Part shown: positions 3,400-63,971 of the stretch, in pieces
How positions within the stretch are numbered: the first letter of the stretch is position 1
Layout of the letters: each line of letters starts with the position of its first letter
From: a virus
Strand: one strand, 5' to 3'
Length of the DNA stretch: 64,000 nt
Virus record (IMG/VR): IMGVR_UViG_3300022891_000002
Location: 86,361-150,360 of that record
Translations under genes and position numbers: made by a program
The notes under the pieces: model-generated
Database searches by the model: none
Told to the model about the DNA's origin: nothing
What the model saw: the letters and a program-made list of their open reading frames with translations, nothing else

Positions 3400-3792
3400 T
3401 CATAAGAAGTTCTTGTAATTTACACTGAAAAACTGACCTAATGTTTTTGCTTGAGCTTTTGATATCTCTCTCTTACCATTGAGAACCTCAGATACTACCC
3501 CTTTACTACCAATAATTCCTACTAAATCTTTCTGTTTGTAATCGTGTAAATCCATACAACCTTTTAAGAATTCAAGAGGTTCTAATTCAGGAACAGGATA
3601 ATGTTCAGTTTCATACTTTTCAATCAAGATACATAGTAGTTCATAGATAGCAATTTCTTCTGAAGTTTTCTCTTTATCGAAAAAATATGGCTCTACTAAT
3701 TTTACATATTTATCTAACTCTTCCTCTGACTCAATAGGCTTGATAATAATTTCAGAAAATAGTCTGATATATTCTTCTTGGTTGAAAGTCAT
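3400..3792 (-). CDS. higA: HigA-type antitoxin / XRE HTH protein, no adjacent toxin
   Basis: PIESEEE...LLCILIEKYETEHYPVP...KQKDLVGIIGSKGVVSEVLNGKREISK matches cyanobacterial HigA. Confidence 0.85.
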   Translation of the reverse strand: MTFNQEEYIRLFSEIIIKPIESEEELDKYVKLVEPYFFDKEKTSEEIAIYELLCILIEKYETEHYPVPELEPLEFLKGCMDLHDYKQKDLVGIIGSKGVVSEVLNGKREISKAQAKTLGQFFSVNYKNFL

Positions 3793-3809
3793 GTGATTAA
3801 TCTCCTCAA

Positions 3810-3841
3810 GTTTCTACTTTTTTAGAAATATAAGCTATAAT
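3810..3841 (+). promoter_or_regulatory. Putative sigma70-type promoter with upstream CTACTTTTTT motif
   Basis: TATAAT at 3836-3841; GTTTCTACTTTTTTAG resembles GTTGCTACTTTTTAAA upstream of the paralogous helicase at 16431. Confidence 0.5.
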
Positions 3842-3877
3842 GTTAGTATGTCCAAATAAAAAAGGTGTCTCGAATTT

Positions 3878-5557
3878 ATGTACTACTCAGACAAATACTC
3901 GGAAATTCCAAACGGAATAGTTAATAAAGCAGCTACAGGTATAGGTTTAACCAGTTTTGCCTTAGAAAATGAAGTTCCGACCGTAGTTGTTACTCCCACA
4001 GTAGCAATGATTAAAAATAAGGTTTCCCAGTATCCAAACAATAGAAGATTAGATTCAGTAATAGGACTTTACCAAGGAGTTTCTTTAAATAGCATTAAAG
4101 ACTATATAGGAAAAACTACTGTCCCAAAGATAATGGTTACTTATGACAGTTTTTATAAAGTAGCTCCTTTAATAGATAGTAGTTACCAAATAATTGTGGA
4201 TGAGTTTTCTGAACTGCTAGACGCATATAACTACAGAAATAAAGCAATATCCAAGCTATTAATTGAAATTCAGAAATTTAATAGAGTCTCTTATGTATCA
4301 GCTACTCCAACTAAAACAGAATATTTACCTCCTCAGTTAAAAGAACTACCTTATACTACTTTAATCTGGGATGATTTAACCAAAATCAATATTGACTTAT
4401 TACATAAGAAGCGTCCTATTCAAACTGTTAGAGCTTTAATTAATAAATATAAAAGTGGTTTAGTAGAGATTAATGGAATAAAGAGTGAAGCAGGCTATTT
4501 CTTTGTTAACAGCGTTCGGATGATTAAAGAAATATGTGAGAAAGCCGAACTACTAAACTCGGAAGTAAGAATTATTTGTGCGGATACAGATAAGAATAAA
4601 CGGACATTAGGAGACTATGATATCTCTACTTCTCTTGACCCAGAGACTATGTTCACGTTTATTACTTCCTGTAGTTTTAAAGGATTAGATTTCTACAGTG
4701 AACGAGGAGTAGTCTTTGTAGTATCTAATAATACTAATACTCATACATTAGTAACTATAGACACTGACATTATCCAAATAGCAGGTAGAATAAGAAATCC
4801 AACAAATCCCTTTAGAAACTATCTATGTCATATCTTCAATATCAATCCTTTAAGTCTAACAAGAGAAGAGTTCGTAAGAGTAACTGAAGAAAAGATAAAG
4901 CAAAGTAATACTCTACTACAAGGATATAGTAAGCTTACTGATGAAGAAAGAGCCTTATTTCTATCTACTCAAAACTTAGAAAACTTCTATATTTCTGTTA
5001 CAGAAGACGGAGTTCCTTACTATGATGAGATGTTGTACTTATTAGATAAACGCAGATACGAAGATATAGCCCAAGTCTATAAAGATGGTTTATCTGTCAA
5101 TAGTTATTACTCCTCTCTAGATAAAGTTGATATCTTACCTTCTACTAAACTAGACATTGATTACCTAGTTAATAACTCTTTTTATTCTCTTTGCAAAACT
5201 GCTGTTGAAGGGAAAGGTGATTTAGAAGTTATCTACGAACAATTTCCTTTAATTAAAGAGGCTATAGAAAAGCTAGGAGTAGAAAGAGTTAAATGTTTAG
5301 GATTTAATAATACTAAAATACAACATGAAATCGACGACTACAATAAGAAAGACTCTGTTAGAACAGTTGTACTAAAAGAAATAGAAAGAGATAGGTTCTA
5401 TAGTTGTAAAGATATAAAGATAGCTCTTGGATATATTTATACTCGCTTAGGGGTACGTGCAACTGCTAAAGCTACGGACATCTTAGAATACTGTAACGCT
5501 AAACTTTGTTGTAAAAAAATAAATGATAAATCTGTGAAAGGTTATCTTGTAGAGTAA
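3878..5557 (+). CDS. SF2 helicase-like protein, origin-binding/replication initiator type (paralog 1)
   Basis: Degenerate Walker A (NKAATGIGLT), IIVDEFS, SAT, FFVNS, QIAGRIR; C-terminal helical/wHTH-like region ending AKATDI. Confidence 0.75.
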   Translation: MYYSDKYSEIPNGIVNKAATGIGLTSFALENEVPTVVVTPTVAMIKNKVSQYPNNRRLDSVIGLYQGVSLNSIKDYIGKTTVPKIMVTYDSFYKVAPLIDSSYQIIVDEFSELLDAYNYRNKAISKLLIEIQKFNRVSYVSATPTKTEYLPPQLKELPYTTLIWDDLTKINIDLLHKKRPIQTVRALINKYKSGLVEINGIKSEAGYFFVNSVRMIKEICEKAELLNSEVRIICADTDKNKRTLGDYDISTSLDPETMFTFITSCSFKGLDFYSERGVVFVVSNNTNTHTLVTIDTDIIQIAGRIRNPTNPFRNYLCHIFNINPLSLTREEFVRVTEEKIKQSNTLLQGYSKLTDEERALFLSTQNLENFYISVTEDGVPYYDEMLYLLDKRRYEDIAQVYKDGLSVNSYYSSLDKVDILPSTKLDIDYLVNNSFYSLCKTAVEGKGDLEVIYEQFPLIKEAIEKLGVERVKCLGFNNTKIQHEIDDYNKKDSVRTVVLKEIERDRFYSCKDIKIALGYIYTRLGVRATAKATDILEYCNAKLCCKKINDKSVKGYLVE

Positions 5558-5564
5558 GGTTACT

Positions 5565-5588
5565 GGGAGTTTTAGGACTCCCTTTCTT
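5565..5588 (+). terminator. Intrinsic terminator-like hairpin after helicase 1
   Basis: GGGAGT-tttagg-ACTCCC followed by TTTCTT. Confidence 0.6.
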
Positions 5589-8897: not shown

Positions 8898-9656
8898 TTA
8901 TAGGTCATACATTCTTTCCTCTACTATTTGGTAACAATCATCGTAATATCTAGCTTCTCTTTCATCTAGCATCGGATTATATTGATTCCAACATTCATCT
9001 TCTTTTCTTTCTCTTTCTACTTCACGTAACTCTTCTCGATACTCAGCTAGTTGTATTGCCCACTCTTCTAATAGCTCTCTTTTTCTTAAAGAACTGTGTC
9101 TAGGTAATTCATCATTTTCAAGGTTAACTTCATCACCGTAAAGATTTTCAAGATATTCCCATAGCAGAGGAATGAAGTATTTAGTAGAAGTCTTACTATA
9201 TAACAGCTCCTTAAATCGAGGAAACTCTTTCTCATACATCTTATAGAGCTTGTCATTATTATCAATGCTAAACTCTGTATTTACTATTCTGTCAGCTAAT
9301 TTAATAACTAAAGCTGCTTCATTATCTTTTATCTTAGGAGCAGTCTTTTCTAATATTTCTTTACGATTAGTTCCTTTCTCATTTGTAACTGCTAAAACTA
9401 AATCTGCTACTTTTTTACCAAATTGAATTAATAGAGTCTCATAAGTAGTCTCTGTATCTTCAATGGAGTCATGCAGCCAACTAGCAGCTAAAATAGTTTC
9501 ATCAGCAATTCCAAAATCTAGTAGAGTTAGGTATACTTCTTTTAGATGAACATAGTAGTCGAGTCTTTGAGGAGACCCGTCTTCGGAAGGTAGCTCCCCG
9601 TAGAACTGATTTCTATGAACTAATTTTGCGAATTCTTCAGCTCTTTTGACTAACAT
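8898..9656 (-). CDS. HD-domain hydrolase, SpoT/MESH1-like (small alarmone hydrolase)
   Basis: HRNQ, YYVHL, WLHDSIEDT, IKLADRIVN. Confidence 0.85.
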   Translation of the reverse strand: MLVKRAEEFAKLVHRNQFYGELPSEDGSPQRLDYYVHLKEVYLTLLDFGIADETILAASWLHDSIEDTETTYETLLIQFGKKVADLVLAVTNEKGTNRKEILEKTAPKIKDNEAALVIKLADRIVNTEFSIDNNDKLYKMYEKEFPRFKELLYSKTSTKYFIPLLWEYLENLYGDEVNLENDELPRHSSLRKRELLEEWAIQLAEYREELREVERERKEDECWNQYNPMLDEREARYYDDCYQIVEERMYDL

Positions 9657-9665
9657 AATTCCTCT

Positions 9666-9965
9666 TTAAGGTAATGAATATAAATCAGATAAAAGAGAAT
9701 CCAATCTTACTTTAGTGTCTTCTACCTGAAACTCTAAATATTTTCTAAACTTCTCTAGAAAGTTATCTACCTCTTCTTTCATTTTAGCTATTAAAGGTTC
9801 TTCTCCAATTTCCCAAGTAATGACTTTGTTGTAGTAATGGTGATTAGTCCACCAAATATACTTGTCAAACTTTTTATGATAGATAGTACCTACCCAATTT
9901 TCACTCTCAAATTTACTTTCACAAGTAGATAGATAGAATCCTTTATATAAAAAAGTCTTCCTCAT
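9666..9965 (-). CDS. HicB-like module protein
   Basis: FLYKGFYL...WVGTI...MKEEVDNFL pattern shared with the HicB at 63696. Confidence 0.5.
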   Translation of the reverse strand: MRKTFLYKGFYLSTCESKFESENWVGTIYHKKFDKYIWWTNHHYYNKVITWEIGEEPLIAKMKEEVDNFLEKFRKYLEFQVEDTKVRLDSLLSDLYSLP

Positions 9966-10387
9966 TAGTCCTCTCCTAAGTTACTATCATTCATCCAATT
10001 AAGACAACTAATAACTACATCCCCATGACACTTCTCATTCTCCTTACACCAACAAGCTAGTTTAAGAGGGTACTTATCTAGTTCTTGCTTAGACTTAACA
10101 TTTCTTAATAACTCATTAAGTTCTTCTTTAGCTTCTGTGTTGTTTTGTACTTGCTCCCACAACCACCTTCTATACTTCTCTACTACTTCTTCTCTTGTAC
10201 CATCTTTGTTAATATAAAATGGATTAGCTAATAGGCTTCCTAGTAATTCTGGATAACCTTTAGCTTTGATAGCTCTACCAATGTAAATAATATCTGGATA
10301 GTCTTTGGGTTCTAATGATAACTTAGTCAGATAACTTTTTACTGATGGTTTCTTTATACAGACTCTTTTTATGTCTAGTTTATTCAT
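9965..10387 (-). CDS. DUF4326 domain protein
   Basis: YIGR, GS.LANPF, REEVVEKY, LACWC..CHGDV. Confidence 0.9.
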   Translation of the reverse strand: MNKLDIKRVCIKKPSVKSYLTKLSLEPKDYPDIIYIGRAIKAKGYPELLGSLLANPFYINKDGTREEVVEKYRRWLWEQVQNNTEAKEELNELLRNVKSKQELDKYPLKLACWCKENEKCHGDVVISCLNWMNDSNLGED

Positions 10388-10718: not shown

Positions 10719-11069
10719 TCATAATCTACTAATTTGAATATTTAAAATAGTGTTTCTAGATTCAATTTTTTCTATTTTCTCTACTAACTCAGGTAAACTT
10801 TCTAATAGATTTTCTACTGAATATTGCTCACCATCTGTACAAGGATATTCTTCTCCAGATTCCCAAGATAAGTAGATAGAATATTTCATCTTTTCTACTT
10901 CTTCACGAAACTTCTTTGTTAATAACTCAAAACTATCTTCCCGTACACTAATACCTAATTCTCTACAAATACCCCAATACTTATTATTTGGTTGAGCATA
11001 ACATTCTAATTCATAACCTCTAAAAGTATAAATATTATCTGTCATAGTTAAGTCTCCTAAACACAACAA
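10719..11069 (-). CDS. HicB-like module protein (probable start at the internal MTDN)
   Basis: YTFRGYEL...YWGICRELG...SFELLTKKFREEVE; AGGAG precedes the internal ATG. Confidence 0.6.
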   Translation of the reverse strand: MLCLGDLTMTDNIYTFRGYELECYAQPNNKYWGICRELGISVREDSFELLTKKFREEVEKMKYSIYLSWESGEEYPCTDGEQYSVENLLESLPELVEKIEKIESRNTILNIQISRL

Positions 11070-12856: not shown

Positions 12857-13402
12857 TTAGCTCTCCTTTTTATACAACAAATCTCTCAACTCACTAAAAT
12901 AAGGAACTAACGCTTCTATTCCTTCTCTTACAACTACCTTAATAACTTCAGCTTGACAGAAAGGAAAATAACCTGCAAAGGGGTCTTCAAAATCATCAAA
13001 ATCTTTAGCATAAACTAATTTCTGAGGATTTTCTTTTAAGTGTTTATACCACAACATTACGTAATACTGAATTCCATAATCGTCTATTACAAAACTATTA
13101 CCTTGTTCGTTAGACTTAACTGGTAGATTTAACTTTCCTATTTGCCAACTTACCTGTCTTATTCTCAGTTTTTCACAACTTTTAACATCTCTCCAACTAG
13201 AAGGGGCATCACAAGTATCAAATCTCTTTGCACATTGATAATGGTTCTCGATTGAATCTTTCTTGCCAAACGCAGTTACATAACAAAAGAAGGGACTGAA
13301 CTCTTTATTTCCTTTAGAGTGACATTGAAGAATCCTCTTACCCTCTTCAACTCTAAATTCACCTTCAAATACTTTCTTGTACATATTAATTCTCTCTAGC
13401 AA
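12857..13402 (-). CDS. NADAR-like protein
   Basis: CHSKG..EFSPF and SIENHYQCAKRF resemble the NADAR EHYxQAxKF motif. Confidence 0.5.
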   Translation of the reverse strand: MLERINMYKKVFEGEFRVEEGKRILQCHSKGNKEFSPFFCYVTAFGKKDSIENHYQCAKRFDTCDAPSSWRDVKSCEKLRIRQVSWQIGKLNLPVKSNEQGNSFVIDDYGIQYYVMLWYKHLKENPQKLVYAKDFDDFEDPFAGYFPFCQAEVIKVVVREGIEALVPYFSELRDLLYKKES

Positions 13403-13805
13403 AATGGTCGTAATATACTAACTCATCTTCTTCATTTAGAAAACCGTAAACACAATACTCCTCATTAAAATCAGAGGTACTTGTAACTTCTCTTATTTCA
13501 CTTAAATTACCAGGAACAAAAGGATAGAAACTTCCCCATTTCTTGTGATAAAACTTTCTACTATAAATTGGTCGAGTATTAGTCGTATCACTAAGTATTC
13601 GTTCTGGCCTATTAAAAGTTATATCGTCGTTCTCATTAATGACATAGCCAACAGCAACTTTTATAGGTCGGTAAACTCCAAACTCAATATTGTCTTTATA
13701 AACTGGTCTAAGTATCTCTTTTCTTGACGGAACTCTTTCTACTACTGGTTCTTCTGATTCTGGTTCACTTTTAGTTCCAAAGAAATAGCCACGAAACATT
13801 CCCAT
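13386..13805 (-). CDS. Phage paralog family B (also 19873-20166 and the C-terminus of 22591-23226)
   Basis: Shared VG(Y/I)(L/V)..N....F and G(F/Y)(L/I)N...EL.YY motifs. Confidence 0.6.
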   Translation of the reverse strand: MGMFRGYFFGTKSEPESEEPVVERVPSRKEILRPVYKDNIEFGVYRPIKVAVGYVINENDDITFNRPERILSDTTNTRPIYSRKFYHKKWGSFYPFVPGNLSEIREVTSTSDFNEEYCVYGFLNEEDELVYYDHFAREN

Positions 13806-13820: not shown

Positions 13821-13985
13821 CTAACTACCAATCAAATCATTTACTTGTTCCCGAAAACTCTTCTCTAATCCATCCTTACTCTTACTAGATATATAAATTC
13901 CTAACTTTTCACATTCTCCATCATATTGTTCAGACATTGAGTTATAAGTAATAACTAATTCGTACCCTTTATAGCTGTAATACAT
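13821..13985 (-). CDS. 54-aa stand-alone HicB-like module (absent from ORF track)
   Basis: Hand translation MYYSYKGYELVITYNSMSEQYDGECEKLGIYISSKSKDGLEKSFREQVNDLIGS. Confidence 0.7.
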   Translation of the reverse strand: MYYSYKGYELVITYNSMSEQYDGECEKLGIYISSKSKDGLEKSFREQVNDLIGS

Positions 13986-14988: not shown

Positions 14989-15297
14989 TCATTTGATTCT
15001 CCCTCGATATTGATTATGTAACCTATCCAACACTTCAATAACTTCCGGTAAAGCTTCTGGATAATAACGAAGCATAGAGTTGAACAAATCTTGAGCTAGT
15101 ATCTCTTGACCATATTGAATCTGTTCTTTTTCTTTTATAGCATTATCAACTAATTTTTTAAAATCTTTCTTTAGATAATCTGTGTCTGAACTCGTATCTT
15201 CATACCCTAATTCTTCACATTTTCCACTGTAATAATAGCCATGAAATTCTACAACTAGAAGGTAGCCTTTATATAAGAAATTATTATTCTCTTCCAT
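14989..15297 (-). CDS. HicB-like module protein
   Basis: FLYKGYLL...YSGKCEELG...LKKDFKKLVD. Confidence 0.65.
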   Translation of the reverse strand: MEENNNFLYKGYLLVVEFHGYYYSGKCEELGYEDTSSDTDYLKKDFKKLVDNAIKEKEQIQYGQEILAQDLFNSMLRYYPEALPEVIEVLDRLHNQYRGRIK

Positions 15298-15628: not shown

Positions 15629-16339
15629 TTAATACAAGTAGAATAGTGGATTAGCACACATATAATTACCAAAATCTGTATCTAAAATATCTAGTAACTT
15701 TTGTGGCACCACATCTTCCTCTCTAGCACAATACGTGTCCCCAAATAAATCCTCTGTTTCAAATTTAGATTTCTCATCTCTACTAAGTAGATAGGCTAAC
15801 CCTTTAGTATTTATTATTGCTATACAAAAATCAATCCACATTTCAGGATTAATTTCCAGCAGTTGACGTAACACTTTATTTACTACTTCTCTCGTTGCTT
15901 TTAGTTCTGACTGTTGGATAGATTCAATTATCTTAGTGTCAAAAGTAGTATAAGAAGAAATACTGTACGCACCTAACTTAAACAATTTACTCTCTATAGC
16001 AGTAGCTAAATGCTTTGGTACATCTTTATTACAATTACGTCCCCACTGTAACCAATAACGACTTTCTACATCTACTACATACTCTGTTCCCTTAATACTC
16101 ACAACAGGTAAACTAAGAAACTTTTTATGAGTATCAAATATATCTGCTCCTAATTCTTCTATTCTTTCGTCTACTAATTGTTCAAATTTCTTTTTTAGGT
16201 TAGATACGGTATCTGTAGTGAAATTATACTTGTACTGGTCTACTTTTACTAACTCAACAATTTCCCCTACTAGACAATTTCTATCTAAATCAGTTGTTAT
16301 TTTAAGAGTAAAACCTTCGTATCTTAGTGTATCAGTCAT
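15629..16339 (-). CDS. HicB-like module fused to a domain paralogous to 14166-14705
   Basis: LRYEGFTL...LVGEI...DTVSNLKKKFEQLVD, then the shared C-terminal domain. Confidence 0.7.
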   Translation of the reverse strand: MTDTLRYEGFTLKITTDLDRNCLVGEIVELVKVDQYKYNFTTDTVSNLKKKFEQLVDERIEELGADIFDTHKKFLSLPVVSIKGTEYVVDVESRYWLQWGRNCNKDVPKHLATAIESKLFKLGAYSISSYTTFDTKIIESIQQSELKATREVVNKVLRQLLEINPEMWIDFCIAIINTKGLAYLLSRDEKSKFETEDLFGDTYCAREEDVVPQKLLDILDTDFGNYMCANPLFYLY

Positions 16340-16430: not shown

Positions 16431-16487
16431 GTTGCTACTTTTTAAATAATTTGTGATATACTATAAAGGTACACGAATTTACCGCAA
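16431..16487 (+). promoter_or_regulatory. Extended -10 promoter bracketed by partial copies of arms A and B
   Basis: TGaTATACT at 16454-16462; GTTGCTACTTTTT at 16431; TTACCGCA ending at 16486. Confidence 0.55.
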
Positions 16488-16491
16488 CTCA

Positions 16492-18940: not shown

Positions 18941-19309
18941 TTATTCTTTCTTACTGGTTGATTCAAAATACTCTCGTCTAATATCTGCTTCACTTAAATC
19001 TAATAAATCACCGAATAACTCATGAATACTTTTAAGTTCTTGTGCCGTTCTACTAGCAGAAAAAGTAACAGAATCAAAAGATAAAGCTCTTAAATACGAG
19101 TAATATGTATGAAGTATTTTATCTTTGTAGGTTATTCTAGAATCTACTTCTTTCTTAAACTTGTTAAAAAGATTGTCTACATTAGTACCTTTAAAGACAT
19201 AAGTAGGTGAAAATTCTGGACAAGTGCTTTCATAATAAGTAATACCGTCATCTTCTGCTAATGTAGCTACTCTTAATAGATAGCCTTTGTACTTCAATTC
19301 GTCTGACAT
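18941..19309 (-). CDS. HicB-like module plus ELKxIHELFGD module
   Basis: LKYKGYLL...FKGTNVDNLFNKFKKEVD; C-terminus shared with 54746-55186. Confidence 0.7.
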   Translation of the reverse strand: MSDELKYKGYLLRVATLAEDDGITYYESTCPEFSPTYVFKGTNVDNLFNKFKKEVDSRITYKDKILHTYYSYLRALSFDSVTFSASRTAQELKSIHELFGDLLDLSEADIRREYFESTSKKE

Positions 19310-21434: not shown

Positions 21435-21917
21435 TTAATACTCATCATCTATTTCTCCTATCATTTTATTAAGATAAATTACTTCCTTCTTCCATTTTTC
21501 TACTTCAGCTTGTAGTTGTATATTTTCTTCTGCTAACTGATTTTGATATTTATAGTTAATCTGGTTATCTACTTGTCTTTCTAATTCTGTTAGTAGATGA
21601 GTAAGGGAATCGGATTCCAATCCTATAACATCTATTTCGTCATTAAGCAATATATCCCCTACTAAAGTATTTCTCTCTGCGTCTAACCAAACTTTGAACT
21701 TGTAATCTCTATAATCAACCCAAAGAATATGGTTTTCTATTTCAGATAACAGCTTTTCTTCTTTTTTAATAGAAAGTAGTAAGTCAGCAACTAATTCTTG
21801 GATTGTTTCTATTACAGGATACTCATTACAAACCCTATCCCAACCATCATCATTAGTAATAGACTTGAAGTTTTTAACAATACTGCGATAACGTTGCATT
21901 TGCTTTTTACTATTCAT
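21435..21917 (-). CDS. Helical N-terminal module plus HicB-like module
   Basis: DYRDYKFKVWLDAERNTLVGDIL...DVIGLESDSLTHLLTELERQVD. Confidence 0.65.
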   Translation of the reverse strand: MNSKKQMQRYRSIVKNFKSITNDDGWDRVCNEYPVIETIQELVADLLLSIKKEEKLLSEIENHILWVDYRDYKFKVWLDAERNTLVGDILLNDEIDVIGLESDSLTHLLTELERQVDNQINYKYQNQLAEENIQLQAEVEKWKKEVIYLNKMIGEIDDEY

Positions 21918-25252: not shown

Positions 25253-25696
25253 TTATTTTAATGAGTTTAACCAATTCTCACGTAATTGAATAGACGTAAG
25301 TAAATCCTCTAAATCAATTTGAATGTCTAACTCTTCCCATTGAATTGCCCTGTCACCTAAGAGACTTACTTTTTCTATTTGTTCTTCAGTTTTACCTTTT
25401 AAACATTTAAACTCACTAATTTCTACAGTAAACCCGGTAAAGTGTTTTTGACCTGAGACTCTATATTCTTTCTCTAATTCAAAGAGTAAGTTTAGACTTT
25501 TAGTAGATTTCCAATACTCTACTTCAAAGATTTTCCAATATATTTCTTTGTGCTTTTCCTTAGCTACTTTGATTTGGTCTTGTAGTTCTTGGTTATTCAG
25601 CCAAAAAGTATCATCTAACTCAGGAATATCAGACGTATCAATGGCAGATTCTGGAATATTCTCTAATTCTTCAAGTCGTTTGCGCGAGATAGTCAT
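25253..25696 (-). CDS. Chimera of a BrnA-type antitoxin N-terminus and a DUF2442-like domain
   Basis: IDTSDIPELDDTFW at the N-terminus; LKGKTEEQ...AIQWEELDIQIDLEDLL at the C-terminus. Confidence 0.65.
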   Translation of the reverse strand: MTISRKRLEELENIPESAIDTSDIPELDDTFWLNNQELQDQIKVAKEKHKEIYWKIFEVEYWKSTKSLNLLFELEKEYRVSGQKHFTGFTVEISEFKCLKGKTEEQIEKVSLLGDRAIQWEELDIQIDLEDLLTSIQLRENWLNSLK

Positions 25697-33039: not shown

Positions 33040-33294
33040 ATGACTCCTAAATTTTTGACCAAGTTAGAAGACTTATTTAGCTACCATCCTCCTAAGACTG
33101 ATGAAGAAAGAGAACAACATAACGTAGTCAACCAAGCATCTATTGAATACGCAAAGTCACTAGCTCAAGTAGTAAAAAATCCTGCTGAGCTAACTACTAT
33201 CCTTAGAGAAATTCAAAAGGTACGTATGTTAGCCAATGCTTCTGTATGTTACGAACGAGTAGGTATTAATTATCGAGACTTGTTCTCTGAGTAA
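33040..33294 (+). CDS. Acb2/Tad1-like small helical protein (putative signalling-nucleotide sponge)
   Basis: FSYHPPK...P.E...L.......MLANASV pattern, 84 aa. Confidence 0.6.
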   Translation: MTPKFLTKLEDLFSYHPPKTDEEREQHNVVNQASIEYAKSLAQVVKNPAELTTILREIQKVRMLANASVCYERVGINYRDLFSE

Positions 33295-47553: not shown

Positions 47554-48204
47554 TCACTTGTTCCTCATTAAGTACACAGTTATAGCTATTGAAGTTACTA
47601 GAATAAGTAATCTCATAGTCAGGTAACTCTTTTCTTAGTTCTAGTAGAATAGATAAACCTTCTATTTCACATTTAATTTGGTCTACTTTCCACCACTTAT
47701 ACCTATAAGCTTTAGTTGCGCGAAGCTTCCAATCTCGGAGTCTTAATACTAAGTCTTCTTTTATACCTAAAACTTCAATAACTTCTTCCCAACTAAGATT
47801 TAAAGAGTATCTCCAAAAAGGACTTCCACCAACAGTAACATTTCCAGAATCATCTGAGACAGAAAGTTTAATTTTCTTCATTAGTTATCCTCTGAGTCAT
47901 GTTCTAGAAAACAACCTAAGTATCTACTGTAATAATCCACGGAATACTTACCTTCTAACTCCTCACGTAACCTTAGTAGAAGTTCTAATCCATAAATCTC
48001 AAAGTCAATAGCTACTTTTTGACTAGCTCGATAAGATAAAGTATTGAACTCATCAACCCACCTGACTAAATCTAAGTAGAGTAGTCTATCAGATTCTACT
48101 AACTTTTCTATTTGGAACCAACTGAGATTACTACCTTCTTCCCAGATAGGTGTAAGTCCTGACTCACAATCCTCATCTACTAAACACAATTTAATTTTCT
48201 TCAT
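47543..48204 (-). CDS. Tandem paralogous hypothetical proteins (47543-47881, 47881-48204)
   Basis: Both start MKKIKL and share P.W, NLSW, L..W, EI.GL..LL.LR.EL. Confidence 0.65.
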
Positions 48205-48649
48205 ACTTTTCAGCTCTCCAAAATTGGCAGTGAATCTCAGCTTCAGTAGCTAACCAAGAAGAATAAGGTTTCTCTAGTGACTCAACTCCTTTAGTTATTG
48301 CTTCATCAAAGAAGTAGACTTCAGGGTCGTCACCCCCATCTAATAGAAAGTAACTAAACTGATAATTTTGACGGAAATGGAAAACAAATGCGTTGTTTGG
48401 TAGAAGTGGGTATCCTTTTTCTTTTAGTAACTCTTTAGCTCTAACTTGAAGTTTAACTAAATAACTATATTCAGCGTAACAATGTAAGAGAAATTTCCTA
48501 GTAGATTTACCCATCCAAAGTAGAAACTCTTTATAAGCTTCTGGAAGAAATATATCTAACTCTTTCTCTAAATCAACTATTTCATCAATTCTACATCCTG
48601 ATACTTTAAGGTCACGTAATAGATGCTTAGCTCTAGTTAGGTAGACCAT
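48191..48649 (-). CDS. SMI1/KNR4 (SUKH) family immunity protein
   Basis: GC..DEI..LEKEL...LPEAYKEFL..MG, DDPEVY. Confidence 0.9.
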   Translation of the reverse strand: MVYLTRAKHLLRDLKVSGCRIDEIVDLEKELDIFLPEAYKEFLLWMGKSTRKFLLHCYAEYSYLVKLQVRAKELLKEKGYPLLPNNAFVFHFRQNYQFSYFLLDGGDDPEVYFFDEAITKGVESLEKPYSSWLATEAEIHCQFWRAEKYEEN

Positions 48650-51091: not shown

Positions 51092-51565
51092 TCATAAGTA
51101 AACCTCTACATCGTATTTGCAATTCGCGAACTCCGAAGTAAATACACCCAAAACCTTATCTATTTCCAATCCACCTTTTCCACAACCTAACATTGGTAAA
51201 GCTAGTAACGGAGTTGGGTATTTCCCGTCTGAATACTTCTCTTCAAAAATAGTAACTAACTGTTTAACTCCTTTCTCAATCCATTCCAACTTAGAAGGTT
51301 TCTTCCAATCCTCTTTAGTACAGAAGTTGATAATAGAACGCTCACCGTTAATTACTTTAGAAGCTTCAGGGATATACCAAATTAAGTCTCCTCCTTTTGG
51401 TGAAGATTTAGAGCAATACTCGTGATAATACTTAAAGTTCTCTGGGAACCTCTTCTTCATTTCTAGCGCTAATCCAGCTCCCATAACTCCTTTACAATTA
51501 ACAGGGTTAACGATAAAAGCAGCAGAACTATCAAAAATACTTTCATTTCTTCTGTAAATAATCAT
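51092..51565 (-). CDS. Macro domain ADP-ribose hydrolase, DarG/Poa1p-like
   Basis: IVNPVNCKGVMGAGLA, IINF.TK.DW, PMLGCGKGGL. Confidence 0.9.
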   Translation of the reverse strand: MIIYRRNESIFDSSAAFIVNPVNCKGVMGAGLALEMKKRFPENFKYYHEYCSKSSPKGGDLIWYIPEASKVINGERSIINFCTKEDWKKPSKLEWIEKGVKQLVTIFEEKYSDGKYPTPLLALPMLGCGKGGLEIDKVLGVFTSEFANCKYDVEVYL

Positions 51566-56058: not shown

Positions 56059-56256
56059 CTACTTTGGATAAACTTGATTGGTTAACGTTAATCTAATTCT
56101 TTCTAACTTCTCAATGACTTCTTTCTCAAAAGTCATCTTCTTACATTTACTACAGATATAAGTAGGAACTCTTAATGTTAGAGATTGGTCACTACCTTTG
56201 ATAGTTAGTAGAGTTTTAGTTAAGTAGATATCTCCTCTACACTTAGGACACTTCAT
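56059..56256 (-). CDS. YgiT/MqsA-type zinc finger protein
   Basis: MKCPKC...VP...CSKC....F...V.EKLE. Confidence 0.75.
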   Translation of the reverse strand: MKCPKCRGDIYLTKTLLTIKGSDQSLTLRVPTYICSKCKKMTFEKEVIEKLERIRLTLTNQVYPK

Positions 56257-57716
56257 CTAAGGAGTCTCTATAATCCAAATTACTAGGATATTTAATTTCT
56301 AGTATCTTTAACCAACCTACTTTTTCTTTGTATATTACAGGTAATAAAGCTTTTAGTCTATCTTCCCAATACTTCTTCATAGTTTCGTACCTAGAGAAAG
56401 GTATATTCTTCTCTAGACAGTAAGTTCGTAACCAAGTAAGGTAGTTTACACAACAGCCCCATTCATCTTCTACGTTTTTCTCAAAATAGTAATCATTATC
56501 CGAGCCATCAATAGGGATAGTCATAATAGCTAATCTCCCCAGTAAACCCAGTTGTTTCCTGCTTCCCTTTTTATATAGTAATTCTCAAGCATATCCATAT
56601 AAGTAAGAACCTGATGTAAGAAACCTTTGTTAAGTGCTTCATCTGCTCCTATCACATCTTCTGTAATATCCCAAGCTAGATTAGAAGTAATAGAACTAAT
56701 ACCACAGTTACCTAGGTCAGATAGAAATAATTCCTTGACCTCCGTTACTAATTTAGTCTTCTGTTCTAAAGGTGTAGGTTCTTCAATGTCCTTCTCGTAC
56801 TTACCCTCTTTGATTAGTAGAGTAATGTGAGAAATAGCTTCAGTTAAGTTACTCATTTTCAGTAAACTCCATAATATCATTAAGTAACTCTACATATTCA
56901 TCCGTATATTCAGAATCCGGTATTAGTTCATCTACTTCAGTTTCTTTAACGCCAAGTTCAGCTATTACTTCTTGAGGTGAGGTACTCTGTCTTATACTTA
57001 CTTCTACCGGGCATATAACTAAAGTAGAGTTAATGCCAGAAGTATCTACTATAGTGTAGTCTCCATCCTTTGTACCTACACTACTACCCCAATACTCAAT
57101 AGGTTCTTTATTGATAGTAATGGTGCTGAGGTCTATAGGTGAGTCAAAATTCTCATGACTAACAGGACTTGTATCTTGTATCTCAACTACTTCCTTAACA
57201 AACTCTATAACTGAGCTATCTAACTCATCTACTTCCTTAAGTGGGATAGATAGAACATACTTATCTACTTCTTTTTCCTTTCTTTCTTTCGTACTCATCT
57301 TAGAAGGAAAAGTATCCTCGAATAGTAGATATATAGTATCTTCTCTAGCTATTATTTCTAACTTACCTTTCTTACTACATAAGATACGTAGATAATGGAT
57401 GACCTCAGTAGGTAGTTCTTTAGTAACTTCTAATATCTGGTAGTCACACTGAAAGTCTATGAAGAAACAAGATGAGTCTAAGATATAGTAAATTCTAGCT
57501 ATACTATCTCTTACTTCTAGAACTACTGATTTAAGTGTCTTATCTACTCCTAACTCTTTAAGACAAAAGATAGGTTTATAGATTCTAGGGTCGTTCCAAA
57601 TTACTCTTGCTACTATTGTTTGAAGTTTATCAGGTGAGTAAGTGTGAACAGGGGTAACGTAACCTACTCCTAAACTATCTACCTTACTTTGAATTTGCTC
57701 TTTTAAAGTAGGCATC

Positions 57717-58406: not shown

Positions 58407-58964
58407 CTAATTGACAAACTTAACTAACTGATTAATCAAATTTTCATTCTTCCGGTCATATATTTCTTTTCTATTGTTGATAATTACACCATCATTGTTT
58501 TTCTTGAAGTAACTATGAACATAAGACTCTGTGTATATTTCAGGATGAGGCTCGGATAAATCACTCTCTATATAAACAGATTGAAATCTTACGTCTGCAC
58601 ATTGTCTAAAAAAAGTAGCTTCATAAGGAAACCTGACCCCCACAATGACAAAATTAGTTCTGCCTAACTCTACTAATTCCAACATCTGAGTTCTAACTAC
58701 TTTACAGTGAAAGTTAATATCTAGCTCTTTTAACTTCTCTGCAATAGTTATAATCTCAGGTCTAAAAAATTCTTTAGTTTTTCTATCTTTTAATTCTTCT
58801 ATCTTTAGACCTGTTTTCTTACATAGAATCTCTTTAGCTAATCCAGCTAGTTCTAACTTTTTATAACCCCAATTCTCTACTAATAAATCAGCAACTACAT
58901 CTTTACCGCTTTTTCTATTTCCAGTCAAACCAATAACTTGAATTCTTTTCTTAGTCATACCCAC
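58407..58964 (-). CDS. Deoxynucleoside monophosphate kinase
   Basis: IGLTGNRKSGKD P-loop, VRFPYE, TES. Confidence 0.8.
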   Translation of the reverse strand: MGMTKKRIQVIGLTGNRKSGKDVVADLLVENWGYKKLELAGLAKEILCKKTGLKIEELKDRKTKEFFRPEIITIAEKLKELDINFHCKVVRTQMLELVELGRTNFVIVGVRFPYEATFFRQCADVRFQSVYIESDLSEPHPEIYTESYVHSYFKKNNDGVIINNRKEIYDRKNENLINQLVKFVN

Positions 58965-59538
58965 CTACCTCTTGGATAATAGAACTGACTTTTCTAAGAC
59001 TTTCTTTTCTTTGTTCTTTTATTAGTAACTCTTTAACTCTATTAATCTCTTCATCGGTGTGAACAACTCCACCAGTATTTAAATCTAAGTAGAACTGTAA
59101 CAACTCTTTTCTAGTAGATAGGTCATTAATGTAAAACTTAAAATTTAGTTCTGAGCTTAGTCGTTTAATTCTCTCACCTTCTCTAGTGAAGTCTTTTCTA
59201 TAAACTCCATTGAAGATAGGTAACTCATCTCTTAGAAATCTTCTTACTGACTCTAATCTTTGCTTACCATCTACTAAACTCATTTCTCCTTTGAAGTCAG
59301 AGAACCAACCGGGATGGTTAAGTATGACGTGTCTATTGTGTTTCCCTCCTTTTAAGACATACTCAACATAAGCAATCCTTTTATCTTCAGACCAAACGTG
59401 TCCTCTTTGAAAATCAGGGTCTAAATTTAAGTTATATTCACTGATGTATCTTTGAATTTGAGCTTCTAAATCATTCCAAGTAACATCACAAGAATATTTA
59501 CCCCAAGCTGAAAATCTAGGAATATCTGACCATTCCAT
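58951..59538 (-). CDS. DUF262 (ParB-like/GmrS N-terminal) domain protein
   Basis: PDFQRGHVW, VDGKQRL, LNTGG. Confidence 0.9.
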   Translation of the reverse strand: MEWSDIPRFSAWGKYSCDVTWNDLEAQIQRYISEYNLNLDPDFQRGHVWSEDKRIAYVEYVLKGGKHNRHVILNHPGWFSDFKGEMSLVDGKQRLESVRRFLRDELPIFNGVYRKDFTREGERIKRLSSELNFKFYINDLSTRKELLQFYLDLNTGGVVHTDEEINRVKELLIKEQRKESLRKVSSIIQEVGGYD

Positions 59539-61703: not shown

Positions 61704-62273
61704 TTAATCAAAAACTACTTTACATCCTGGTAGTACACCAAATAACGTATCTACATCTTTCGGAGTAACAGAAGTACCTGATAAGTTAATAGATACTAGA
61801 TTAGTTAGCTTACTAAGACTACTAATATCAGATACTCTACTATTACCTCTAAGTCCTAGACATCGTAAATTAGTTAGGTTACTAAGAGGTGTCACATCCT
61901 TAAGTAGGTTAAGACCTATATATAGTTCCTCTAATGTTCGTAACTTATCAATACTTTCTACGCTACTAATGTTATTACCTATTAGATTTAAGTGTTGTAG
62001 GGGTAAGTCATATAAAGGAGTAAGGTCACTTATCTCATTATCATCTAAGACTAGGACTTTGACTTTAGTTAAGTACCTCAGTGGCTCTAAAGACTTAACA
62101 CTAGAGTTTTGAATCACTACCTTATCTAGATTTTCATAATAATATGCAGTATCTTCAGGAATAAAAGCTGGTGATTTACTGAACATCACTTCTAATGTAT
62201 GTTTAATATCATCTTCTTGAGAATCAATGTTTCTGAATAAGTCTAGTAGATTAGTCATTATTTGGCTCTCCAT
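61704..62273 (-). CDS. Leucine-rich repeat protein (internalin-like)
   Basis: Repeated LxxLxLxxNxIxDLxPL units. Confidence 0.9.
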   Translation of the reverse strand: MESQIMTNLLDLFRNIDSQEDDIKHTLEVMFSKSPAFIPEDTAYYYENLDKVVIQNSSVKSLEPLRYLTKVKVLVLDDNEISDLTPLYDLPLQHLNLIGNNISSVESIDKLRTLEELYIGLNLLKDVTPLSNLTNLRCLGLRGNSRVSDISSLSKLTNLVSINLSGTSVTPKDVDTLFGVLPGCKVVFD

Positions 62274-62646
62274 GTATTTCTTTTAAAAAGTTAGCAAATT
62301 CTTCTTGACTTTCTTTTCTCTTTTTAATGTAATCTGAGAAGTATAACTCTACTTCTGATTGAGATATTTCAATAGCAGTGTCCTCATCTTTAGGCATAGT
62401 TACTTTAAAAATTTTATAGTCTAAGTCTAAGTAGAAATCGGGAGTATTTAGTAGAAAATTAACTAAAGCTAAAATACTAGAGTCTTCTACTAAAGCAAAT
62501 AGATAAGTCAAAGGTTCACTATCTACTGCTAGACCTAAGTAGATTTGTTCTTTCTGATTCTTACAAGAAAAGAACTGAGGAGTATCATAGAAGTCGTAAA
62601 CCTCAATATACTCCAGAGTTCCTAATATAGTGTTTTCAGGTAGCAT
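62251..62646 (-). CDS. DUF6575-like protein
   Basis: LGTLE..EVYDFYD.P..FSC.N....YL. Confidence 0.55.
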   Translation of the reverse strand: MLPENTILGTLEYIEVYDFYDTPQFFSCKNQKEQIYLGLAVDSEPLTYLFALVEDSSILALVNFLLNTPDFYLDLDYKIFKVTMPKDEDTAIEISQSEVELYFSDYIKKRKESQEEFANFLKEIHGEPNND

Positions 62647-63184
62647 TAAAAAGCAGTCTCAACTAAACGATAGTTATTAGATATGAGTAGAACTACTAAC
62701 TTTTTAGTACATTCTCTGCACAGCTCAATAGTTTTATGTCCAGTAGGTAACTTAATCTCTCCGTAAAAAGGAGAACCATTCCACTTATTATCTAGAATTC
62801 TTTCTCTGCGTTTATCACATTCAGTATATTCTTCTACAATTTCTACTTTCTTAGTTACTTGAACTTCCATTATCAGTTACCTCTTTATAGCCAAACACAT
62901 AGTAGCCCCAACCATTAGAAGAGTTACATCCACCTATTACACACTCAATCTTCACGGGTTTATTCAGAGCTGCTTTTAACACCTTTTCCCAGTAATCAAT
63001 ATCAGACTCCCCAGGTTCTTGTCTCATCTTGTAAGACCAATCAATCAACCTATCGCTGTAATTCCAGCTTAAGCTTTTTAAAACTTCAGAACTAGAATTT
63101 GCTCCATAAACAATTTCTTCTTTACCGTTTTGAAATCTGGGATTGGAGTAGTGAATGAAAGGTAAGTTAGTCATTATAGTTCTC

Positions 63185-63694
63185 CTAAGCTTGTAGTTGT
63201 TCTAATGCCTTCTTTACAGATTCCCTTAATTCAACTTCTGTTACATCAAACTCAAGGTCAAACAATTCACTTTCCTCATCACAGTAAGCATCTACATCTC
63301 CAAATAACTTATCTAAAACTTTGAACTCCTTATCTGAACTAAACTTCTTTTCCTCTTTAAACTTTTCTAGAAAACTCTCTCCAAACTTATCCACTGAAAT
63401 TCTTTCTTCTAAAAACTCAGTAAGCAACTCTACATAAGACATAGCAAACTCCTTTTGACAACTAATGTACTTATAACCTAGTTCTAGATATCGTTGAGCA
63501 GTTGCAAACCCTCTACTGTTTCTAACTCCGGGTATTTGAAAATCAGGTTTTTTATGAGTAGCTTGAGCATAGCTAACCCAAGCAAGCTTATTCTCTGAGT
63601 TCGTCTGTAATACTTGTAGAAATAGATATCCGTCTGAACCGCGTTTCCATCTTAAAAGCTTGAGATTCTTATCGAAAGCAATTAACTTTTCCAT
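63185..63694 (-). CDS. Unknown N-terminal domain plus colicin-D-immunity-like domain (internal start at 63442)
   Basis: Y..LL..FL...IS.D.F...FL..FK.E...LD.LF.DVDAY...E.ELR..V..AL; AAGGAG 6 nt before the internal ATG. Confidence 0.7.
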   Translation of the reverse strand: MEKLIAFDKNLKLLRWKRGSDGYLFLQVLQTNSENKLAWVSYAQATHKKPDFQIPGVRNSRGFATAQRYLELGYKYISCQKEFAMSYVELLTEFLEERISVDKFGESFLEKFKEEKKFSSDKEFKVLDKLFGDVDAYCDEESELFDLEFDVTEVELRESVKKALEQLQA

Positions 63695-63695
63695 T

Positions 63696-63971
63696 TTAGT
63701 TAGGCTCTTTATTCAATTCTTGACAAAACTCCAGATAGTCCTCAACAGATTTAGCAAATTCTATCTTGGCTTGTCTAACGGTGTCAGCTTTGAAAGTAAC
63801 TACATCTTGAATGTAAAGAACTCTACCATAAATAGAATCCGTCTCTACATCTACTTCCATTGCTCCGGAGTAGTTTTTGTACTTAATAGTTTGAGTAGTA
63901 ATTCTTTCTGCATGACCTGAGTTAGTTACTTGAGATAATAAAGCTTCATCTTTTAGATAACTATTTACCAT
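63696..63971 (-). CDS. hicB: HicB antitoxin N-terminal domain, truncated before the DNA-binding domain
   Basis: KYKNYSG..EVD..TD..YGRVL.IQDVVTF.ADTV.....EF..SVEDYLEFC.ELNKEP. Confidence 0.9.
   Translation of the reverse strand: MVNSYLKDEALLSQVTNSGHAERITTQTIKYKNYSGAMEVDVETDSIYGRVLYIQDVVTFKADTVRQAKIEFAKSVEDYLEFCQELNKEPN

Follow-up and report, generated by a model that had tools for sequence, protein, structure and literature searches.

Single stand-alone relatives of bacterial antitoxins have been proven to act for other phages. The orphan macrodomain AdfM, a DarG2-like protein of the chimalliviruses (gp104 of PhiKZ), and the orphan NADAR protein AdfN of T-even, T5-like and Vequintavirinae phages have already been published, each experimentally shown to serve in phage counter-defence (PMC13309987 and PMC11825919, respectively), and an antitoxin mimic of ICP1 provides a further precedent (PMC11481870). 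Toxin-less clusters presumed to be active immediately on entry are also known on mobile elements: conjugative plasmids carry orphan antitoxins and anti-defence genes in their leading regions (PMC11541004), and bacteria have orphan immunity islands. Lastly, Macro, NADAR, SLOG, Nudix and DUF4326 domains form a viral NAD+/ADP-ribose network (PMC9503650).

The DNA analysed here is a stretch of 64,000 nt (the window; positions 86,361 to 150,360 of IMG/VR record IMGVR_UViG_3300022891_000002) from a phage genome of ~150 kb, recovered from a leaf litter metagenome. The contig ends overlap, the last 126 nt repeating nt 11–136, and the genome is therefore complete; when the ends are joined, the database protein P0001 is restored exactly. 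A relative, G001, is likewise a complete phage, with direct terminal repeats at 146.5 kb. Neither six-frame nor ORF-by-ORF Pfam searches of the whole genome revealed an integrase, and the best explanation, somewhat favoured when taken as a whole, is a lytic phage of an uncultivated soil and leaf-litter clade. No evidence points to the cyanobacterial host assumed in the original prediction.

That prediction also described a broad set of antitoxin and immunity homologues. The set stands at about a dozen stand-alone genes, an unusual number of families for one phage, and the genes originally named are genuine minus-strand ORFs, lying in long arrays of small genes on that strand. Added to them here are DUF4326, the N-terminal half of DUF6575, a leucine-rich repeat (LRR) protein and a weak Acb2/Tad1-like gene. 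The features are as follows.

3400..3792 (-): HigA-like protein, N-domain and C-terminal HTH; first gene of a minus-strand array (PDB)
8898..9656 (-): MESH1/small-alarmone-hydrolase-type HD domain, residues ~8–145 (Pfam, PDB, PHROG 990)
9965..10387 (-): DUF4326 protein (PF14216, 64.9 bits)
10719..11069 (-): probable diverged HicB-like module, cluster C (BLAST cluster, hhalign)
12092–12856: Thg1-like gene, abutting the next
12857..13402 (-): divergent NADAR-fold protein (AF2 model, Foldseek)
13821..13985 (-): probable diverged HicB-like module, cluster C, 54 aa (BLAST cluster, hhalign)
14989..15297 (-): probable diverged HicB-like module, cluster C, N-terminal (BLAST cluster, hhalign)
15629..16339 (-): HicB-like module, residues 5–66, fused to a C-terminal domain common to 14166–14705 (profile hmmsearch)
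18941..19309 (-): HicB-like module, residues 5–69, plus C-terminal extension (iteration 1, E 6e-4; hhalign 98.7%)
21435..21917 (-): HicB-like module, residues 67–132 of a 160-aa protein (external profile, E 4e-4; iteration-stable)
25253..25696 (-): DUF2442 domain, residues 89–135, with novel N-terminal part (PF10387, 28.8 bits)
33040..33294 (+): 84-aa protein, weakly Acb2/Tad1-hairpin-like, candidate signal sponge (PF24729)
48191..48649 (-): SUKH-1 (SMI1/KNR4) immunity-type protein (PF09346, 35 bits; also SUKH_6, SUKH_5)
51092..51565 (-): stand-alone DarG-type macrodomain (AdfM-like), 157 aa (Pfam, 40.8 bits; PDB)
56059..56256 (-): CxxC...CxxC zinc ribbon, 65 aa, weakly YgiT/MqsA-N-domain-like (TIGR03830)
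61704..62273 (-): LRR protein, end of immunity-like cluster (PF12799 matches at window 61782–62132)
62251..62646 (-): DUF6575, N-terminal half (PF20215, 54.2 bits, model 3–109 of 218)
63185..63694 (-): colicin-D-immunity-type domain, residues 85–167, after an 84-aa N-terminal extension (PF09204 Colicin_immun, 55.4 bits)
63696..64000 (-): HicB N-domain protein without RHH (PHROG 9151, homologues with PF05534, fold)
Left arm of the genome: MazG (Pfam census)

No cognate toxin of any of these genes was found in the phage, as had been proposed for the window. Six-frame and ORF-by-ORF Pfam searches of the complete genome, the census covering 262 of the 266 ORF calls, returned no HigB, HicA, DarT, BrnT, MqsR, colicin D, DUF4160 or other toxin family. 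The Pfam E-values, 5.5e-7 to 9e-15, lie far under the chance expectation for 266 ORFs. Eight of the nine domains originally named have tool support, that for HigA being weaker, whereas the MqsA/YgiT call is weak and the BrnA half of a supposed BrnA–DUF2442 chimera is unsupported.

The macrodomain is specifically of the DarG type: its best PDB matches are the DarG macrodomains 5m3i (8.6e-21) and 5m31 (7.6e-19), while other macro families reach ~1e-3. Its bacterial homologues are DarG proteins of 365–390 aa with DarT directly upstream (PF14487, 112–116 bits), and the motif FCTKEDW is invariant across four phage copies. As a phage macrodomain standing alone without DarT it resembles AdfM, although it is just 33–40% identical to the listed isolate-phage copies, belongs to another phage lineage and comes from a phage for which no nucleus is known. 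Relatives turn up in 263 phage records, with many Pseudomonas and Erwinia phages among them. The NADAR-like protein has no Pfam match, NADAR PF08719 included; its AF2 model (pLDDT 95.2) has one significant Foldseek match, 8bat, the DarT1-associated NADAR of Geobacter lovleyi (E 1.3e-5, prob 1.0, TM 0.56/0.47), followed by YbiA. Two homologues, P0044 and P0061, score 26.7 bits with PF22397 (NADAR-DarT1), just under the cut-off of 27, and in some bacteria other homologues carry a fused Macro or SLOG domain. Like AdfN, the phage protein is toxin-less and of predicted NADAR fold, but it is too divergent for the Pfam family, belongs to a distinct and well-conserved family with invariant C, H, E and H, and is encoded beside a Thg1-like gene. 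This tRNA-repair neighbour suggests an RNA-repair context. The HD protein, whose C-terminal ~100 aa are uncharacterised, matches Pfam HD_4 (29.9 bits, cut-off 27.2) and, in the PDB, MESH1 (3nr1, 2.6e-9), the small alarmone hydrolase 6z3o and Rel hydrolase domains; it could merely reset the host stringent response. DUF4326 is a rhodanese-phosphatase clade tied to the Macro/NADAR/SLOG network in viruses, and nucleotide signals are a possible alternative target for the HD, macro, NADAR and DUF4326 proteins (PMC9503650). Like that network, this medium-sized phage brings together Macro, NADAR-fold and DUF4326 proteins, yet the network lacks its HicB, HigA, SUKH, colicin-D-immunity and DUF2442 members.

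The HicB gene at 63696 spans the contig junction, the full protein P0001 (145 aa) starting at genome nt 269. It matches PHROG 9151 'HicB-like antitoxin' (3e-18), its domain is 44–51% identical to HicB proteins with an adjoining HicA, and its fold superimposes on solved HicB N-domains (4p78, 6g1n, 5yrz) with Z 5.6–6.7 and rmsd 1.6–2.0 Å over 57–60 residues. In the homologue P0020 the HicA gene (39 bits) overlaps by 4 nt; this, together with the DarG beside DarT among the macro homologues, identifies the bacterial counterparts as genuine toxin–antitoxin components. The phage protein shares the N-terminal fold of HicAB-module HicB but has neither RHH nor HTH, stopping exactly where the RHH domain starts in the bacterial homologues, and carries a novel N-terminal extension of 80 residues; the genome has no HicA, and holds four to seven copies with varied fusions. 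Loss of the RHH fits a protein with no need of autoregulation. A predicted complex with a bacterial HicA scored 0.78 (best of three controls, 0.01), a mark attained among solved complexes by 58 of 80, and among mismatched pairs by 2 of 110; runs agree in at least 98% of contacts, with partner pLDDT of at least 89. The model supports HicA binding as a likeness and not as proof, since HicAB complexes have already been solved.

A HicB-domain profile was built from database homologues and then iterated. The module at 15629 was found at E 5e-4 with full model coverage before phage sequences joined the profile, and is iteration-stable. Cluster C (10719, 13821 and 14989, a BLAST cluster) is assigned by a single hhalign result against the profile (prob 87.5%, E 3.5e-6, 47 columns). 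The 'many' HicB-like modules first proposed therefore come to about seven, four of them robust and three probable, not ~19. No precedent for a toxin-less HicB was found.

The sole PDB matches of the HigA-like protein are to E. coli antitoxin HigA (5ifg/5ycl, E 0.004) over residues 73–125, which are the HTH; it has no Pfam or NCBIfam match, and PHROGs 11202 and 1373 annotate it as 'transcriptional regulator'. DUF2442 is described as 'often found in antitoxins' (10.1101/2023.12.08.570793); BrnA found no support in the N-terminal part of that protein, PF14384 giving nothing at E<=10. The zinc ribbon matches TIGR03830 below the family cut-off (E 0.015, model 1–52 of 127) and not PF15731, and its nearest Atlas clusters are 'YgiT-type zinc finger' (0.92). 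The SUKH gene is interspersed with a four-member paralogue family (47263, 48651, 49203, 50727) and tblastn across 50,697 phage records retrieved nothing for it; the colicin-D-immunity gene likewise had no match among phage isolates. The Acb2-like protein scores 26.2 bits with PF24729 (E 9.4e-6, model 1–56 of 58), just under the cut-off of 27, and has no PDB sequence match.

Nine of these genes (HigA, HD, DUF2442, SUKH, macro, zinc ribbon, colicin-D-immunity, HicB and Acb2-like) are syntenic in G001, where the HigA-like, Acb2-like and SUKH orthologues are 79, 83 and 67% identical and the colicin-D-immunity orthologue scores 56.4 bits. Identities to bacterial homologues of 34–51% and the shared synteny point to old, inherited acquisitions, not fresh captures, and the idea that the phage systematically captures host antitoxins is not supported. 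Trimming is apparent in HicB and the DarG-like protein (157 versus 365–390 aa), whereas the HigA-like protein retains its HTH. Retention of the toxin-binding part with loss of DNA binding describes HicB; by sequence comparison the DarG-like protein is the reverse, its enzyme domain retained and its toxin-binding C-terminus gone.

Several genes may be read differently. We consider it unlikely, though worth serious weight, that there is no unified library, just a heterogeneous set of accessory genes that serve host takeover in unrelated ways: the HD hydrolase and MazG tuning nucleotide alarmones; Macro, NADAR and DUF4326 clearing immune signals derived from ADP-ribose or the by-products of RNA repair; the HigA-like protein a phage transcription factor; and the HicB-like proteins generic dsRBD-like nucleic-acid or protein binders. 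The Macro/NADAR/SLOG/DUF4326 network occurs in many phages, where soluble ADP-ribose signals are favoured over DNA adducts (PMC9503650), and the Thg1-like neighbour, the presence of MazG, the HTH and regulator PHROG of the HigA-like protein, the resemblance of the HicB-domain fold to dsRBDs as well (Z 4.3–4.9) and the varied domains joined to HicB-like modules all agree with it. Against it count the DarG type of the macrodomain with DarT beside its bacterial homologues, the closeness of the HicB domain to antitoxins with cognate HicA, and the joint presence of toxin-less SUKH, colicin-D-immunity and DUF6575 genes, which metabolism explains poorly.

These last members, with the LRR cluster, might instead guard the infected cell or phage against toxins of competing bacteria, rival phages or satellites, much as acquired orphan immunity islands do in bacteria, and not counter the host's own defences; we regard this as improbable. 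SUKH and colicin-D immunity are polymorphic-toxin and bacteriocin immunity families, classically directed against interbacterial toxins (PMC3482391), and orphan immunity genes against interbacterial antagonism are cited in PMC11825919; the cluster of HicB-like, DUF6575, Colicin_immun and LRR genes recurs in another large contig (L008), and the litter and soil from which the phage comes house a dense community. However, lytic infection is short, so it is not obvious what immunity to neighbours' toxins would gain, and colicin-D-like tRNase, HNH and similar nuclease folds are also abortive-infection effectors. Very improbable indeed is that some genes are halves of complete phage toxin–antitoxin or exclusion modules whose toxins are novel small adjoining ORFs, such as 3197–3403 after the HigA-like gene and 56243–56524 before the zinc ribbon. 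Overlaps of 4 to 14 nt with small neighbours of no assigned function, and the complete HicAB pairs of temperate coliphages mEp234 and HK106, speak for it; yet direct neighbours of the antitoxin-like genes have no Pfam match even at a relaxed E of 0.5, G001 retains the HigA-like and zinc-ribbon genes but has neither of these neighbours, and known toxin families are absent from the complete genome.

We therefore lean, with slightly better than even confidence, towards a heritable panel of stand-alone antitoxin and immunity descendants neutralising host abortive-infection and toxin–antitoxin effectors, a counter-defence role that is plausible from sequence. The panel would work in two ways, and we infer that it would be expressed early in infection. 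Some members would undo toxin effects enzymatically: ADP-ribose would be stripped from DNA by the DarG-type macrodomain and the NADAR-fold protein, toxic alarmones or tRNA pyrophosphates would be broken down by the MESH1/SAH-type hydrolase, and DUF4326 would process ADP-ribose products. Others would act by stoichiometric binding: the RHH-less HicB N-domains (four to seven genes) would sequester HicA-type RNases, while the HigA-like, YgiT-type ribbon, DUF2442, SUKH-1, colicin-D-immunity and DUF6575 proteins may each bind their own toxin class. It differs from the plasmid leading regions in belonging to a probably lytic phage and in mixing type IV-like enzymatic antitoxins, type II binders and polymorphic-toxin immunity domains, and such multi-family breadth in one phage appears to be new.

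The record (150,360 bp, 33% G+C; the window is its last 64 kb) ends in 126 nt (window 63875-64000) that are identical to genome nt 11-136. Joining the ends at this overlap rebuilt letter for letter P0001, a 145-aa database protein corresponding to the full HicB-like protein, the gene for which spans the junction. Given the end overlap and the reconstituted P0001, we conclude that the contig is circularly closed and the genome complete. The IMG/VR record, labelled linear and 49% complete, is thus a closed complete genome in which the P0001 gene was split by an arbitrary contig break. The CheckV completeness of 49% was rejected, since G001, the closest related complete phage, has direct terminal repeats at 146.5 kb and is rated at 48%, and the ends of the contig overlap. 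The genome encodes a terminase, Mu-like portal, E-type capsid protein, DNA polymerase A, DnaB-like ATPase, Sak, RuvC and SSB, together with ThyX, ribonucleotide reductase (RNR), dUTPase and a deoxynucleotide kinase; a Pfam census of its ORFs found no integrase, and we take the phage to be lytic and tailed. When 20 kb were compared by megablast with 50,697 phage records there was no match, and the only protein-level relatives in this collection are Pseudanabaena phages, with a portal identity of 24-26% that we consider insufficient for assignment as a cyanophage. The phage DNA is found in a leaf-litter metagenome run that is probably its source; two soil metagenome runs contain part of it (0.37 and 0.21 of words), and no RNA sequencing runs containing the phage sequence were listed.

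The stand-alone antitoxin- and immunity-type genes of the window lie mostly in minus-strand arrays of small genes. Four of them (DUF4326, DUF6575, LRR and Acb2-like) were added by a Pfam census of all small ORFs:
3400-3792, HigA-like protein
8898-9656, HD_4 hydrolase of the small alarmone hydrolase type
9965-10387, DUF4326 protein (64.9 bits)
10719-11069, 13821-13985 and 14989-15297, probable HicB-like modules
12857-13402, NADAR-fold protein
15629-16339, 18941-19309 and 21435-21917, HicB-like modules
25253-25696, DUF2442 protein
33040-33294, plus strand, Acb2/Tad1-hairpin-like protein of 84 aa (PF24729, 26.2 bits, just under the cut-off of 27)
48191-48649, SUKH-1 protein
51092-51565, DarG-type macrodomain
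56059-56256, zinc ribbon protein
61704-62273, LRR protein (Pfam census)
62251-62646, N-terminal half of DUF6575 (54 bits)
63185-63694, colicin-D-immunity protein
63696 to the end and across the junction, HicB-like protein

The originally named genes had been noted for their lack of recognised cognate toxins, and this holds for the complete genome: six-frame searches detected no HigB, HicA, DarT, colicin D, DUF4160, BrnT or MqsR at E<=1, and Pfam scans of 262 of the 266 ORF calls detected no toxin family at E<=1e-3, the other four, left-arm ORFs crossing locus boundaries (585, 277, 3228 and 417 aa), being covered by the six-frame named-toxin searches only. ORFs directly flanking the antitoxin-like genes match no family even at E 0.5, and G001 does not conserve them together with those genes.

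The HicB-like protein at the junction matches PHROG 9151 'HicB-like antitoxin' (3e-18), and over its last 63 residues it shares 44-51% identity with bacterial proteins that carry PF05534 (HicB) and PF08681 (RHH). The phage protein terminates exactly where the RHH of its bacterial homologs starts, and one of these homologs is preceded by a HicA gene with a 4-nt overlap (PF07927, 39 bits). Compared with a HicB antitoxin, the phage protein thus has the N-terminal, HicA-binding domain but neither the C-terminal RHH/HTH DNA-binding domain nor an adjacent hicA. The Pfam HicB families PF15919 and PF05534 gave no six-frame or direct match in the phage, PDB sequence searches (single sequence and profile) returned nothing, and Foldseek of the 145-aa model gave no match at E<=0.001. 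The AF2 model, however, has a pLDDT of ~90 across the domain, and VIA-align over 48,161 chains placed HicB structures at ranks 2-7 (rmsd 1.6-2.0 Å over 57-60 residues), with Z values of 5.6-6.7 that are middling, though the matches are concentrated in one family. PHROG, the PF05534 homologs and this fold match together bear out the HicB call. In complex modelling, phage residues 78-145 with the HicA encoded beside that bacterial homolog scored 0.78, whereas the highest-scoring of three controls reached 0.01. Of 80 solved complexes, 58 attain the mark used, as do 2 of 110 mismatched pairs; between runs, 98% or more of the contacts agree, and pLDDT for the partner is 89 or higher. Because HicAB complexes have already been solved, this result indicates a HicB-like interface rather than proving that this copy binds.

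A profile built from database HicB homologs alone recovered two more ORFs, 21435-21917 and 15629-16339, at E ~4e-4 with full model coverage; iteration added 18941-19309 and then converged, also when three related genomes were included. A BLAST cluster of three further genes (10719-11069, 13821-13985, 14989-15297) aligns to the HicB profile in hhalign (87.5%, E 3.5e-6). The observation of many HicB-like modules is thus borne out in part, with four robust and about seven probable genes, although iteration stops at four; a count of ~19 copies was not reproduced by iterative HMM searches. The modules are fused to differing extra domains. By tblastn, a HicB-type domain occurs in just 13 of 50,697 phage records; for coliphages mEp234, HK106 and mEp506 the annotated records show a hicA/hicB pair, and no toxin-less copy was found among the matches listed.

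The macrodomain protein matches Pfam Macro (40.8 bits), and its best PDB matches are DarG macrodomains (5m3i, 8.6e-21; 5m31, 7.6e-19; 7omu), compared to ~1e-3 at best for non-DarG macro families, in agreement with its DarG-like designation. The motif FCTKEDW is invariant in four phage copies, and its Lys is, by DarG/TARG1, presumably the catalytic residue. Bacterial homologs (34-44% identity) are DarG proteins of 365-390 aa with DarT immediately upstream (PF14487, 112-116 bits), whereas the phage protein of 157 aa is the catalytic macrodomain alone. It shares the DarG/TARG1-like macrodomain with DarG of DarTG2 but lacks the C-terminal DarT-binding domain and an adjacent darT. On account of this difference in length and of the absence of DarT from the genome, we class the gene as an orphan resembling AdfM, the published phage macrodomain antitoxin, and not as a DarTG module. 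DarG-like macro relatives are present in 263 phage records. Searched with the macro alignment as a profile, genome contigs from many phyla yielded DarG genes (27-44% identity); because of this spread, the search is uninformative on the host.

The NADAR-like protein had no match in Pfam (PF08719 included, six-frame), NCBIfam or a single-sequence PDB search. Its AF2 model (pLDDT 95.2) gave a single significant Foldseek match, the Geobacter lovleyi NADAR 8bat (E 1.3e-5, probability 1.0, TM 0.56), with E. coli YbiA at rank 2 and PnNADAR at rank 40; a PDB profile search of the family also ranked 8bat first, but with E 0.91. The predicted structure, with 8bat on top, hence supports a NADAR fold as proposed. 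The family is well conserved, some cyanobacterial members being fused to Macro and one member to SLOG, and two homologs are borderline matches to PF22397 'DarT1-associated NADAR antitoxin' (26.7 bits against a cut-off of 27). Directly abutting the NADAR-fold gene is a gene for a Thg1-like tRNA-His guanylyltransferase (12092-12856, minus strand; Thg1 110.8 bits, plus Thg1C), which is in G003, another related genome (73%), and absent from G001; it could provide tRNA 5'-end repair against tRNA-targeting toxins.

Three other calls were upheld by family matches. In the PDB, the SpoT/MESH1-type HD protein (HD_4, 29.9 bits) resembles MESH1 (2.6e-9), the hydrolase domains of Rel and small alarmone hydrolases; like the latter and MESH1, it has a single HD_4 hydrolase domain without a synthetase domain, and the Pfam census found no synthetase family in the phage. 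The SMI1/KNR4 protein scores 35 bits with SUKH-1 (PF09346, gathering score 25.4), its top PDB match being a Smi1/Knr4 family protein (E 0.098), and the colicin-D-immunity protein scores 55.4 bits with Colicin_immun (PF09204, gathering score 22, model 3-88 of 88). PDB sequence searches were empty for the latter and for the Acb2-like protein. Relatives of the SUKH and colicin-D-immunity proteins were absent from the 50,697 phage records by tblastn, and IMG/VR pattern scans gave just one relative for SUKH and none for the colicin-D-immunity gene.

Three calls survive in reduced form. At 25253 the DUF2442 part of a proposed BrnA-DUF2442 chimera is present (residues 89-135, 28.8 bits) but BrnA is not (PF14384 six-frame, nothing at E<=10). 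The HigA-like protein has E. coli HigA as its only PDB matches (E 0.004, 53 residues, over the HTH) but no Pfam or NCBIfam match; in contrast to E. coli K-12 type HigA its gene has no adjacent higB, the neighbour 3197-3403 having no family and not being co-conserved. The supposed MqsA-type zinc finger, of 65 aa with a CxxC...CxxC arrangement, weakly resembles YgiT-type zinc fingers (TIGR03830 with E 0.015, under the cut-off; 'YgiT-type zinc finger' is also the name given to its Atlas neighbours), but compared with MqsA it is a zinc ribbon only, with no C-terminal HTH, no mqsR and no PF15731 (MqsA) match in a six-frame search of the phage. NCBIfam gave nothing useful for the HigA, HicB, NADAR and DUF2442 genes.

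Other genes of the genome were also noted. At the genome junction the order is HicB-like, colicin-D-immunity, two unknowns, DUF6575-N and LRR, and a similar set (HicB-like ... DUF6575, Colicin_immun, LRR) occurs in a 308-kb JGI contig. Four paralogs of ~100 aa (47263-47553, 48651-48962, 49203-49832 and 50727-51122, minus strand) are interleaved with the SUKH-1 and macro genes; their Atlas neighbours are viral hypothetical clusters only, and they may be another immunity or anti-defence family. Among ten ORFs scanned around this island, RuvC alone matched. An eight-member paralog family (13386-13805, 19873-20166 and 22591-23226, minus strand, and five genes at genome 15146-19160) shares a C-terminal module of ~100 aa with beta-hairpin motifs 'GY.D.N...V.Y' and no family match. 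A 195-aa protein (58951-59538, minus strand) has GmrSD_N (DUF262, 40.7 bits) as its sole domain; in type IV restriction enzymes this forms the N-terminal half, and a nuclease half was not detected in the phage protein. Three paralogous DEAD-like helicase genes (560-608 aa, 30-39% identical; window 3878-5557 and 16453-18279, genome 19462-21219) each lie on the plus strand within minus-strand arrays. The true large terminase gene is located at genome 30144-31772. An AlkB-type 2OG-Fe(II) oxygenase (23358-23936, minus strand, 114 bits) possibly repairs alkylated nucleic acids. A 458-aa ORF (28504-29880, minus strand) matches the RNR barrel partially (best stretch, model 1-98 of 523), has no ortholog in three related genomes, and may be a split or intein/intron-interrupted RNR. 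In the structural/lysis region of the left arm, genome 44040-45599 (plus strand) encodes a 519-aa protein with two PAS domains.

G001 has 170 of the 266 ORFs in common with the phage, and syntenic counterparts include the HigA-like (79%), HD (53%), DUF2442 (45%), SUKH (67%), macro (88%), zinc ribbon (76%), colicin-D-immunity (64%), HicB-like (59%) and Acb2-like (83%) genes but not the NADAR-like and DUF6575 genes. G003 retains HD, DUF2442, macro, HicB-like and part of the colicin-D-immunity gene. Since panel proteins are just 34-51% identical to their bacterial homologs and are retained in G001 and G003, sequence comparison indicates that the panel is an old, vertically inherited and fast-diverging feature of the phage clade, with some turnover. 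The same data give no support to the original proposal of a systematic capture of host antitoxins, the panel not being a recent sweep of host genes. The accompanying idea of trimming fits HicB, which lacks the RHH, and DarG, which has lost the toxin-binding C-terminus and kept the enzyme, but not the HigA-like protein, in which the HTH is still present and which could just be a regulator.

We favour reading the set as a counter-toxin panel whose members would act in two ways. The enzymatic ones resemble AdfM (PMC13309987) and AdfN (PMC11825919), which reverse DarT2 and DarT1 DNA ADP-ribosylation, respectively, and also SAH-type antitoxins of toxSAS systems (PMC7229694). The RHH-less HicB would sequester toxins stoichiometrically, and the missing RHH would suit a protein relieved of TA-operon autoregulation; stoichiometric toxin binding is perhaps also the role of the zinc ribbon, DUF2442, SUKH, colicin-D-immunity and DUF6575 proteins. 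An alternative is that the macro, NADAR and DUF4326 genes act on soluble ADP-ribose signals instead. According to Iyer et al. (PMC9503650), Macro, NADAR, SLOG and DUF4326 are widely found together in phages of medium and large size; these authors favour such signals as substrates. The position of the NADAR-like gene against a Thg1-like tRNA-repair gene suggests an RNA-repair context. Resetting of the stringent response could be the function of the HD hydrolase and MazG, and the SUKH and colicin-D-immunity proteins may guard against toxins that bacterial neighbours deliver.

That orphan antitoxins can serve phages in counter-defence has been published already, proof so far being limited to the enzymatic AdfN and AdfM and to a few mimics; the macro and NADAR genes add to known classes. 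The breadth and composition of the set are another matter: neither a multi-family panel nor an expanded RHH-less HicB family was found described for any phage in the literature searched. We offer only tentatively, and rather doubt, the full proposal that this phage lineage turned the toxin-binding HicB half, without its RHH, into an expanded modular family which, with SUKH-1, colicin-D-immunity, DUF6575 and enzymatic orphan antitoxins, forms a multi-family 'antidote kit' against toxin-based immunity. If phages do also use binder-type type II antitoxin domains and interbacterial immunity proteins in multi-family panels, the anti-defence catalogue would widen, and a toxin-less antitoxin or immunity domain minus its DNA-binding part would be a simple genomic signature for new anti-defence genes. 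The panel would then be a source of natural toxin inhibitors for study, and phages of soil hosts would seem to face genuine obstacles in TA systems such as HicAB, HigBA, toxSAS and colicin-D-like tRNases.
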